Of a stretch of 64,000 bases of DNA, positions 3,701 to 39,992 are shown in pieces. Each line of letters starts with the position of its first letter. Position 1 is the stretch's first letter. The position numbers were made by a program, and so were the translations under genes. The notes below the pieces were generated by a model that saw only the letters and a program-made list of their open reading frames with translations, made no database searches and was not told the origin of the DNA. Source of the DNA: a virus. The stretch lies in IMG/VR virus record IMGVR_UViG_3300030107_002332. The stretch is one strand, 5' to 3'.

Positions 3701-4196
3701 TGTTATCTTCCCTAAACTTGTTGAGTGCAGGTGTATTTCCTTTCATTTTTTCGTATACACGACGAATTATATCCTCCTGTACCATTTGCTTCTTAGACTT
3801 AATAACACTCTCGTTCTTTCTCTTTGCTGCTTGCTTCTTATATAACCTTTGTGCTTGTTGATTTTTCTTTACTGCTGTCTCCTTATCACCAGCATGTGCT
3901 GCCTTACCTCTTGCGATGTCTGCTTTCTTAGATGCTCTAAGAGCTAGATCAGCAGAGATCTCATCTAACTGCTCACCTTCTAACTCTACTTCTTCATCCT
4001 TTTGATTTTTCTTCTTCTCTTCCTTCTCCCTCTTGGAGATCTTACCATCTACATCACTTTTTTCATACCACTTCCCATCACCATCGTCATCTTGCCAACG
4101 GTCTTTATCTTTTTTATCATCCTTTTTCTTACCCTCATACACTTTCTTAAGTGCATCGGTCATATCAGGAAGTTCATTAGGTGTAAAGGAATTCAT
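3687..4196 (-). CDS. Charged hypothetical protein (cyanophage type, DDDGDGKWYEKSDVDGK motif)
   Basis: 169-aa ORF overlapping both neighbours. Confidence 0.75.
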   Translation of the reverse strand: MNSFTPNELPDMTDALKKVYEGKKKDDKKDKDRWQDDDGDGKWYEKSDVDGKISKREKEEKKKNQKDEEVELEGEQLDEISADLALRASKKADIARGKAAHAGDKETAVKKNQQAQRLYKKQAAKRKNESVIKSKKQMVQEDIIRRVYEKMKGNTPALNKFREDNNADI

Positions 4197-31707: not shown

Positions 31708-32741
31708 TACAGTTCCGAAGCTTCTGTATATAAAGATCGCATAACCTTCTTGATGTTAGGCTTACTTACCTTTAGATCTATCTCATCTATGTAGTTGTCT
31801 AAAAGGGTCATAGTGTCTTCGGTTTCCAATACCGCACTACCACTCTCCAGTTCCACACTAAGATCTTCAATAATCTTAAGATCTGCAAGACCTATGTCTT
31901 GAAGTTGTTTAACTGCATAATCAAATTTGGTGTAGTCACCCTTGTCTTCTACTATGAGTTTGACAAAAGTTCCCTTGAGTTCATTTTCGTCTGGTAAAGC
32001 AACTCCATCATTATAGTACAACTTATGGAAAGTGTCAAAGGGATTTCTATAAAAAGTTGTCTTAAGAGTTTCTGTATCAAATACATGGAACCCTCTCTTA
32101 GTACCATAATCATTCCAATACAACTGATAAGGATTACCAAGATAATATACGTTGTCTGTATTTGACTTCTGATGATAATGTCCTGAGAATACCTTCTTAA
32201 ATTTACTGAATGGAGACACCTCCATACCAGCATCCATCACATGACCAGGATGAGCCTCAAAGCCGTTAAGCTCAAGATGGCCCATACAGACAGGAGCAGT
32301 ACTGTCTGCGATGCTTCGGAAGGTTCTGTCGTAGTTGTCATCACATATCCAAGGAAGAAGTAGAATGTCAATACCACCAAAGTTACTGGTAGTAGGCTCT
32401 TCAATGATATCCATGTTGTCGTATTCTCCCAATAGTTCTGTTGGGGAATTAATTCTAAGAGTATTTTTATAGTAGATATCATGGTTGCCTATTAATGTAG
32501 TCATATGACAACCCAATTCTTTTACAGGGTCAAACCACATCTCCTTTGCCTCATCAAGAGACATGAAATTAATAAACCGTCTTCTATCAAAGGTATCACC
32601 TAAATTTATAATGGTTTTAATCTTTGATGCTTTTAAAAACGGTACTACTATCTCACCATAAAACTTCTTATAATGAGAAATGAAATGTTGATTGTCATTC
32701 CGTACACCGAAATGCTGATCTGTTATTAATAATATCTTCAT
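31707..32741 (-). CDS. g47: Recombination endonuclease subunit, SbcD/Mre11-like (gp47)
   Basis: TDQHFG, LGDTFD, GNHD, SGHYH. Confidence 0.95.
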
Positions 32742-33256
32742 GACAGATCATCAATAGTATACAACGAATATAATTCTACCTCTTGATCATACCATAAAAA
32801 TGGTTCATACTCTTTCCTATCTACAATAGTAACAACTCTTTCTACATCATATCCTGCTTCACGTAACTTTGCTACTGCCTTAAGAGATGATCCACCAGTG
32901 GTAACAACATCTTCTAATACTGTAACCTTAGTACCTTCTGGATGCACTGGACCTTCTATCCATGCACCAGTACCATGACCTTTAGGTTCCTTACGGATAA
33001 TTAAGGCATCAAGACTTCCCTTCATAGCAACACCTGCTACTAAAGGATCTGCACCAAGAGTAAGACCTGCCACTACAGGGGTATCAACATACTTCAATAG
33101 CATTGTAGCAGTAAGGTTCAACCCATAACCATTTAGTATGACAGGTTTGCAATTGACATAATGCTCACTGGTCTTACCAGAAGACAATTTATACTCACCC
33201 TTACGGTAAGCCCTCTCTTTTATCAGTGTTAGTAAGGCTTCTTTAACGCTTGGCAT
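32738..33256 (-). CDS. pyrE: Orotate phosphoribosyltransferase
   Basis: [31 protein letters not shown]. Confidence 0.92.
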
Positions 33257-37740: not shown

Positions 37741-38640
37741 CTATTTAGTCACGTACCCAATGACCCCATCTATCTCTATTTCAGGTGGAACAATTAGTAC
37801 AAAACCAATACCCATATTAAATACTCTTCTCATTTCTTCCTCTTCTATCTCACCTGCTTCTTTTATCTTATTAAAGATCTCTGGCCTCTCCCAAGAAGTC
37901 CAATCAATATTAGCCTTTAATCCTTCAGGTAATATACGTGGAACATTCTCAATCAATCCACCACCTGTGATATGTGCCATACCTACAATAGGTATCTCAT
38001 CCAGTAGATCTTTAACCTGTGGCCAATAGATTGTAGTTGGTGTAAGTAACTCAGGAGTATCCTTATAATAAATCTTATGTCTCCATAACATATCATTGAT
38101 AAGACTGTATCCATTACTATGCAGTCCACTACTGGGTAATCCTACTATCTTATCACCTTCTTTAATTAGACTACCATTAATAATTTCATTCTGTTCTACA
38201 ACACCTGTACAAAATCCTGCAAGATCATAGTCTTTAGCAAACCTACCATGTTCAGCAGTCTCACCACCTAAGAGATGTACCATTGCCAGATCACATCCCT
38301 TGATAATACCTTCCATTATCTGATCTGCTTTATCATCTAACTTCTCACAAGAAATATAATCTAAGAAGTATAATGGATGTGCTCCACAACAAATCACATC
38401 ATTAACACACATAGCAACAAGATCTATACCAATGGTTGTCCAATCATTGAACACCTGTGCCATATTAATTTTAGTACCTACACCATCAGTACCAGAAACT
38501 AATACAGGTTTCTCATAACCAGATGGTAATGGTATCATTCCATTAAACCCACCAATGTGAGGAAGTTTTGATTTTAATCTTTGAACAAATGCATTACCAG
38601 CATCTATATCAACACCAGAGTCTTTATAATTCATAATCAA
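37741..38640 (-). CDS. purM: Phosphoribosylformylglycinamidine cyclo-ligase (AIR synthase)
   Basis: YKDSGVDI, GTDGVGTK, GGETAEH, SSGLHSNG, HITGGG, FNMGIG. Confidence 0.95.
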   Translation of the reverse strand: MIMNYKDSGVDIDAGNAFVQRLKSKLPHIGGFNGMIPLPSGYEKPVLVSGTDGVGTKINMAQVFNDWTTIGIDLVAMCVNDVICCGAHPLYFLDYISCEKLDDKADQIMEGIIKGCDLAMVHLLGGETAEHGRFAKDYDLAGFCTGVVEQNEIINGSLIKEGDKIVGLPSSGLHSNGYSLINDMLWRHKIYYKDTPELLTPTTIYWPQVKDLLDEIPIVGMAHITGGGLIENVPRILPEGLKANIDWTSWERPEIFNKIKEAGEIEEEEMRRVFNMGIGFVLIVPPEIEIDGVIGYVTK

Positions 38641-39072: not shown

Positions 39073-39160
39073 CTGTGAGGGATGGAGTCGAACCATCAAG
39101 TCCCGCAAGCAGAACAGCAGGGAAACAGCCTGCCACGTTTACCAGTTTCGTCACCTCACA
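39073..39160 (-). tRNA. Atypical 88-nt tRNA, anticodon GUU (Asn), long class II variable arm, U37, no encoded CCA
   Basis: Acceptor TGTGAGG/CCTCACA + G73; D arm ACG/CGT with GG; anticodon stem GCAGG/CCTGC, loop CT-GTT-TC (GTT at 39126-39124); V arm GTTCTG/CGGGAC; T arm GATGG-TTCGACT-CCATC. Confidence 0.9.
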
Positions 39161-39168
39161 TTGAAGCC

Positions 39169-39966
39169 CTATTTAAGGGCTGAGATTATACGGGTCATTC
39201 CGATCCCTCCACCACTTCTGGGGAAGAAGTCAAAGTCAAGGAACTGTTCAAGTTCTTGCTCTACCCTACTTCTACCAAACTTGTCTATAATCAGTTGAGC
39301 ATAACCTCCATCTGATATAGTATAGAATGTATCACGCATTTGATCCTTGTCGGTACTCCTTTCAGCACTACCGATAGTTTCCATGCCACCTAATATAACG
39401 TCAATCTTTTTACTTGTCCCATCAGTATTTCTTGCCATATTCCAGAATGGTGATGTCCACTCAGGGAAGTCAGTAATCATACCTCTACCAATTTGTTTCT
39501 CATGATCATGGTCTATCTCCTTAGTCTTAAATGCCTCAGCCCATGATGCATATTTTTTAATGTTATATTCTTCCAATGGTACACCTAACCATTGACACAA
39601 TTCTATCTCCATTTCTTTTAGTTCTTCTACACCACCCTTCATTTCAAATTCAAACATGGGGAAGATAGTCTCATGTCTACCTGGTACAGGATTTGGTTCT
39701 GCTCTATAAGATGTAGAGACACAGAAAAACCCTTCTTCTGAAGGGTTAGAAAGTAATTCATGTTCAAGCCACATCTGACCTGTCTGTGGTAGTGGCCAGA
39801 TATTACCACCATAATTATAACTTGCTACGGTTTCTGGATCTTCACAAGCAGCAAGGATGCTTAATCTATTTTGTGTGTGAACTTCCAGAAAGTTTTTAGA
39901 CAAAAAAAACGACCTCAATAGGCCGACAGCATCTGAAAATTCTCTTGGATCAATCAAACTCGTCAT
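39169..39966 (-). CDS. Stand-alone class II aminoacyl-tRNA-synthetase catalytic domain (AsnRS/AspRS-like, no anticodon-binding domain)
   Basis: 265 aa from MTSLIDPREF; motif 2 STSYRAEPNPVPGRHETIFPMFEFE; ETIGSAER; motif 3 PRSGGGIGMTRI. Confidence 0.85.
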   Translation of the reverse strand: MTSLIDPREFSDAVGLLRSFFLSKNFLEVHTQNRLSILAACEDPETVASYNYGGNIWPLPQTGQMWLEHELLSNPSEEGFFCVSTSYRAEPNPVPGRHETIFPMFEFEMKGGVEELKEMEIELCQWLGVPLEEYNIKKYASWAEAFKTKEIDHDHEKQIGRGMITDFPEWTSPFWNMARNTDGTSKKIDVILGGMETIGSAERSTDKDQMRDTFYTISDGGYAQLIIDKFGRSRVEQELEQFLDFDFFPRSGGGIGMTRIISALK

Positions 39967-39986
39967 TATTTTTGGACAAACTAATC

Positions 39987-39992
39987 TATTTA
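39987..39992 (-). promoter_or_regulatory. Late promoter TAAATA for the synthetase-like gene and tRNA
   Basis: Between the g23 terminator and ATG 39966. Confidence 0.65.

Follow-up and report, generated by a model that had tools for sequence, protein, structure and literature searches.

Several described systems bear on a small enzyme and an unusual tRNA that are encoded side by side in a marine cyanophage. Asparaginyl-tRNA synthetase (AsnRS) combines a class IIb catalytic domain with an N-terminal OB anticodon-binding domain. Related class IIb cores, including the archaeal asparagine synthetase AS-AR/AsnRS2, Escherichia coli AsnA, and EpmA/GenX, stand alone and act off tRNA. Where AsnRS is absent, asparagine can be made on tRNA-Asn by a non-discriminating AspRS followed by GatCAB, for which U1:A72 is the bacterial determinant and an extra D-loop base is an anti-determinant in class I tRNAs (PMC1635274). 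For example, Prochlorococcus marinus MIT9312 has gatCAB, one asnB-like gene, no asnA, and no asnS (PMC4206432 Table S1), so its asparagine is made mainly on tRNA. Finally, the first three steps of de novo pyrimidine synthesis, carried out by CarAB, PyrB, and PyrC upstream of PyrD, PyrE, and PyrF, are treated as universal. The biochemistry proposed here for the phage locus is inferred from sequence, predicted structure, and gene context.

The window, that is, the whole 64,000-nt stretch of IMG/VR record IMGVR_UViG_3300030107_002332 that we analyzed, is part of a T4-like marine cyanophage. Its major capsid gene g23 (41444-40044, minus strand) is 86-89% identical to cyanophage capsids. On the same strand, g23 is followed by a terminator-like hairpin (40024-40000), a T4-type late promoter box TAAATA (39992-39987) that is one mismatch from ATAAATA, and an open reading frame of 265 aa (39966-39169), which we call X. 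Eight nucleotides after the X stop codon lies an 88-nt tRNA gene (39160-39073) with a GUU anticodon, a 7-bp acceptor with U1:A72, a Leu-type D arm, U37, a 19-nt variable region, G73, and no encoded CCA. There is no terminator between X and the tRNA, while a weak hairpin plus T run inside X (39925-39910) is within chance expectation. The sequence-only reading had described this arrangement, and its observation and coordinates were confirmed. One contig from an RNA library spans the end of X and the tRNA, but it may derive from DNA, and the RNA runs consist of contigs only, which do not show expression.

The pairing of X and the tRNA is fixed in phages. Orthologues in cyanophages P-SSM7, P-SSM2, and P-SSM5 are annotated as "tRNA ligase," and in P-SSM7 and P-SSM2 the tRNA lies 7-9 nt downstream. 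In the P-SSM2 record (AY939844.2), the tRNA-Asn is annotated about 2 kb away from where it lies, directly after the X gene (positions 3814-3899 of our extract, L002). Of 80 viral loci, all 75 with full downstream sequence carry the tRNA, and three truncated loci show its start. When we started from the tRNA instead, 66 of 76 informative loci had X adjacent, 7 had it near, and 3 had none, two of the latter having short flanks. The folding z-score of the tRNA alone was not significant, and no Rfam family matched at gathering level, but covariation carries the case for the structure: the cloverleaf was 99.9% paired in 30 homologues, and 19 of 24 pairs changed on both sides, including in the variable stem. 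The GUU anticodon, U37, and G73 (77/77) are invariant and U1:A72 holds in 73/77, whereas position 33 can be C and the variable arm runs from 12 to 41 nt. Four phage copies have A1:U72, and in a phage subgroup with this pair (loci L354, L377, L398, and L427) the tRNA lies 285-388 nt from an X that is 51-54% identical. Furthermore, TAAATA lies within 70 nt upstream of X in 77/77 phage loci, against a background of 5.7%. In contrast, two megaphages (735 and 484 kb) carry a divergent X with no adjacent tRNA, and another (LR756511) has pyrE and pyrD but no X hit.

X is predicted to be a bare AsnRS-type catalytic core. The only Pfam match was tRNA-synt_2 (E 6e-13), and a single-sequence search of the PDB found nothing, but a profile search did return matches. 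The fold model (pLDDT 96.6) covers the class IIb catalytic domain with motifs 1-3 and has no OB domain, as the reading frame starts at motif 1; longer relatives carry dihydroorotate dehydrogenase or OMP decarboxylase instead. The best structural matches were AsnRSs, followed by AspRS, archaeal asparagine synthetase, LysRS, and GenX (Z 22-25). In the amino acid pocket, QTGQMWLE of X aligns with QSSQLYLE of AsnRS, in alignments to Brugia (2XTI) and human AsnRS, and the pocket positions are conserved in the family (L67 93%, E68 93%, E106 98%, E108 94%, R203 95%). X has Leu67 where AspRS and AsnA have a Lys that binds a carboxylate. Nevertheless, X scored far below the cut-offs for AsnRS (TIGR00457, 17 bits versus 342.6), AspRS, and asparagine synthetase. 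The family is large, with over 8000 clusters at 90%, and has invariant residues of its own (C41, N176, K187, Y222, and R250).

Relatives of X in cellular genomes change the picture. Homologues at 43-62% identity occur in Bacteroidota, Alphaproteobacteria, Myxococcota, Chlamydiota, Babeliales, CPR, and DPANN genomes, where they are followed by terminators or other genes rather than by the tRNA. When we searched 50 of these genomes for partner tRNAs, we found, besides three phage-like contigs binned in metagenome-assembled genomes (MAGs), only one alphaproteobacterial GUU copy and GUC copies in Chitinophagales, none linked to X. The alphaproteobacterial copy (MAG G007; L169:1501-1587, minus strand) is a stand-alone long-arm tRNA(GUU) with C37, U1:A72, G73, and CCA, in a genome with X and pyrD but no AsnRS or pyrB hit. 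The genomes with X have ordinary tRNA-Asn, and 29/50 have a full AsnRS. The recurring neighbors of X are instead genes for dihydroorotate dehydrogenase (DHODH), orotate phosphoribosyltransferase (PRTase), and OMP decarboxylase (OMPDC). In 16 cellular loci from Bacteroidota, Alphaproteobacteria, Myxococcota, Chlamydiota, and Nanobdellota, pyr genes lie within 5 kb of X; 14 of these have pyrD, pyrE, or pyrF without pyrB, while in the other two X directly precedes pyrB. Nine longer homologues are DHODH-X fusions, some on giant-virus-like contigs; another is an X-OMPDC fusion next to PRTase and pyrD; and another X lies beside a PRTase-OMPDC-DHODH triple fusion. In addition, X lies directly downstream of PEP carboxykinase in 15 Weeksellaceae loci.

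The distribution of X is complementary to that of aspartate carbamoyltransferase (ATCase, PyrB). Of 22 X genomes with a clear pyrD, leaving out one more in which X is on a phage-like contig, 19 lack ATCase, including a one-contig chromosome (G035), while 14/14 controls have it. In Weeksellaceae, pyrB is present in 0/8 genomes with X and 121/153 without it (p 8e-6), although these represent one clade and are not independent. In a second family, that of genome G011, most genomes without X also lack pyrB, making the comparison uninformative. Genomes G026, G017, G031, and G021 also lack CarB and PyrC hits, whereas G006 and G019 lack CarB but have PyrC-like genes just under the cut-off, so that in these two X may replace only CarAB and PyrB; an amidohydrolase Pfam search was too broad to test for PyrC. 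X together with PyrD, PyrE, and PyrF therefore looks like a complete UMP pathway. Yet, three genomes with X and pyrD keep pyrB, most of the genomes are incomplete MAGs, and many genomes with X (Babeliales, Simkaniaceae, Woesearchaeota, and several CPR) have no pyrD hit, so the family may have further roles.

The same link holds in phages. The window contains pyrE, for orotate phosphoribosyltransferase (32738-33256, minus strand; TIGR00336 above cut-off), 5.8 kb downstream of X and likely in the same pathway, along with the auxiliary gene purM (37741-38640). Among about 460 cyanophage records, X and pyrE occur in the same six, from two genera; the complete genomes among them are P-SSM2, P-SSM5, and P-SSM7, and partial single-cell records with pyrE cannot be judged. 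In other viral contigs, pyrE is adjacent to X in five (L026, L030, L032, L045, and L401), four of the five longest X contigs hold pyrE, and one contig (L086) reads pyrD-X-tRNA. Starting from viral pyrE, no locus held X within the short flanks retrieved, but 2 of 5 longer fragments did. The tRNA-paired proteins form one clade inside the wider family (support 97 in a quick tree). The phage protein keeps 98 of 104 residues conserved in the pyrimidine-linked cellular enzymes, has a net charge of -17, and shows no gain of basic residues, and thus no sign of a new tRNA-binding surface.

The tRNA has relatives of its own. In Chitinophagales (L170:1501-1639, L175:1501-1615, and L327-L349), we found tRNA-like genes with the same acceptor and D arm, U1:A72, G73, no A37, variable arms of 40-84 nt, and a GUC anticodon, in 1-7 tandem copies, present in 15 of 33 genomes of one family. 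These genes lie divergent from an AsnC-type regulator, the place that asnA occupies in E. coli. A GUC tRNA with U1:A72 would put asparagine at aspartate codons if it decoded, so it is probably a carrier on which asparagine is made. The phage tRNA is closer to these genes (median 40 of 58 core positions) than to tRNA-Leu (28) or ordinary tRNA-Asn (31). The Bacteroidota tRNA occurs independently of X (4/8 genomes with X and 11/25 without), which favors release of free asparagine over a lock-and-key pair, and GatB did not separate genomes with and without the GUC tRNA in the G011 family.

Taken together, we favor the interpretation that X is not a translation synthetase but a metabolic enzyme that feeds the late pyrimidine pathway, standing in for CarAB, PyrB, and PyrC. 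Asparagine plus one CO2 holds every ring atom of dihydroorotate. In this view, X would bind asparagine and ATP as AsnRS does and form Asn-AMP; carbamate formation on the alpha-amine with CO2 or bicarbonate, closure to the N-carboxyanhydride, and attack by the side-chain amide would then give dihydroorotate. Host PyrD, phage PyrE, and host PyrF would finish UMP, bypassing the regulated steps of the host. Because Prochlorococcus has no AsnRS and makes asparagine on tRNA, the phage would add a dedicated tRNA: host non-discriminating AspRS would load aspartate (GUU, G73), host GatCAB would amidate it (U1:A72), the altered loop and long arm would keep it off the ribosome, and asparagine would be released to X or passed to it directly, possibly with Asn-tRNA serving as the already activated substrate. 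Our data establish the anatomy of the locus, the fixed pairing, the modeled fold, the gene context, the fusions, and the missing PyrB, whereas the substrate, the chemistry (including the making of dihydroorotate), the charging and amidation of the tRNA, and its exclusion from translation are inferences. The reaction from asparagine to dihydroorotate is our own proposal and not a described one. We consider it very likely that X works in pyrimidine synthesis, probable that its substrate is asparagine, and only somewhat more likely than not that the tRNA supplies it, which is also our view of the mechanism as a whole. The extra D-loop base at 20a, the four copies with A1:U72, the occurrence of the Bacteroidota tRNA independently of X, and the asnB-like gene of the surveyed Prochlorococcus strain, a possible source of free asparagine, weigh against parts of this scheme; searches for AsnB cannot tell true synthetases from amidotransferase paralogues.

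Other explanations deserve consideration. The sequence-only reading proposed an orthogonal pair in which an anticodon-blind enzyme recognizes the long arm and acceptor and charges the tRNA for late translation, to resist host nucleases, for recoding, or as a non-ribosomal aminoacyl donor. This interpretation is only partly supported. It was right that the two genes form a fixed unit, that the core is of AsnRS type, and that Prochlorococcus, judged from one strain, relies on GatCAB and has no AsnRS (PMC4206432), and a non-ribosomal use was among its options. However, the occurrence of homologues without such a tRNA, which had been named in advance as evidence against it, is what we found for the family as a whole. 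Fixed adjacency, the single clade, the AsnRS-type pocket, and the invariant GUU speak for a private synthetase, but the pyrimidine fusions and the acidic protein with no basic patch gained speak against it. In addition, a host without AsnRS and asnA probably has scarce free asparagine, U37 throughout and C33 in some copies are poor for decoding, and an anticodon-blind enzyme would not need invariant U1:A72. We therefore regard it as unlikely. A more serious, though still doubtful, alternative is that X works in pyrimidine synthesis with other substrates or another product, for example carbamoyl-aspartate from a carbamoyl donor other than carbamoyl phosphate, or ATP-driven ring closure of a ureido compound, with the tRNA in a helper role not captured here. 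The same gene context supports it, PyrC-like genes persist in some genomes, X precedes pyrB in two loci, and the extra conserved residues show a changed active site. Against it stand the AsnRS-type pocket, the lack of CarB, PyrB, and PyrC hits in Weeksellaceae X genomes and G021, and the asparagine-pathway marks of the tRNA.

It is less likely still that the tRNA is a nuclease-resistant backup or a miscoding tRNA charged by host enzymes, riding along with an unrelated enzyme. Charging could be by AspRS and GatCAB for decoding, or by SerRS, for which a long arm plus G73 are marks (PMC5389517), and in P-SSM7 the pair lies in a tRNA cluster. Yet, the tRNA is almost never found without X, its arm length varies widely, and the homologous GUC genes would miscode if used in translation. 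Least likely is that X is an ammonia-dependent asparagine synthetase like archaeal AS-AR/AsnRS2 or AsnA. It shares their architecture, matches 3REX/3REU (Z 23.5), and coexists with AsnRS in 29/50 genomes, but AsnRS matches score higher, there was no hit to the asnA model, and X lacks the carboxylate-binding Lys. Such an activity would not explain the pyr fusions or missing pyrB, and the host has no AsnRS to use free asparagine.

If our interpretation is correct, an aminoacyl-tRNA synthetase-derived enzyme would provide a second de novo entry to pyrimidines in bacteria, giant-virus-like genomes, and phages, fed in phages of hosts without free asparagine by a non-decoding tRNA that borrows the host's AspRS and GatCAB. 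We regard this full scenario as about as likely as not. A 265-residue enzyme that bypasses the first three steps would change how pathway gaps in many genomes are read, explain why some cyanophages carry pyrE, and show a phage route around the host's regulated steps. A tRNA used as a reusable platform for making an amino acid for metabolism would also be new. Our literature searches, which did not cover subscription journals, found no description of this family's function or of this tRNA. The pair is present in the cultured phages P-SSM7 (gene 129) and P-SSM2 (gene 198), whose products are direct orthologues, 89% and 76% identical to X, with the same gene-tRNA order, annotated by similarity only and with no functional study found.

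Compared with the AsnRS catalytic domain (human 8H53, Brugia 2XTI, P. horikoshii 1X54, and T. thermophilus 9SH8), X shares the predicted fold (Z 25-26, rmsd 2.0-2.2 Å over about 239 residues), the QxxQxxLE motif, the motif 2 Arg, ExExE, ETIG..R, and the motif 3 Arg. It differs in having about 21% identity, no OB domain, Gln for the motif 1 Pro, Ile for the motif 2 Glu before Phe, and Arg and Thr for the motif 3 His and Glu, and in its occurrence in pyr operons and fusions. Like AS-AR/AsnRS2 (3P8T), AsnA, and EpmA/GenX, X is a stand-alone class IIb core (Z about 23), but with an AsnRS-type rather than Asp-type pocket, scores far below those families' cut-offs (NF005055, 20 bits versus 389), and a different gene context. 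With CarAB, PyrB, and PyrC it shares, by operons and fusions, a position upstream of PyrD, PyrE, and PyrF, but its fold is unrelated, its proposed substrate is asparagine, and one small enzyme apparently replaces up to three steps. The phage tRNA resembles allo-tRNAs and selC* tRNAs (PMC5389517) in its long variable arm, G73, and an anticodon that does not fit the body, yet it has a standard 7/5 acceptor branch with a 3-bp, Leu-type D arm and an invariant anticodon, whereas allo-tRNAs are 8/4 or 9/3 with varied anticodons, and it scored 22.8 bits against a cut-off of 47 for the Rfam tRNA-Sec model. Canonical bacterial tRNA-Asn has the same GUU, G73, and U1:A72, but a short variable loop, a purine at position 37, and a short D loop. 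These three marks are also those of tRNA-dependent asparagine synthesis (PMC1635274, PMC4206432), from which the phage tRNA differs in its class II body, extra D-loop base, and U37, and in its proposed role of giving asparagine for metabolism, not for decoding.
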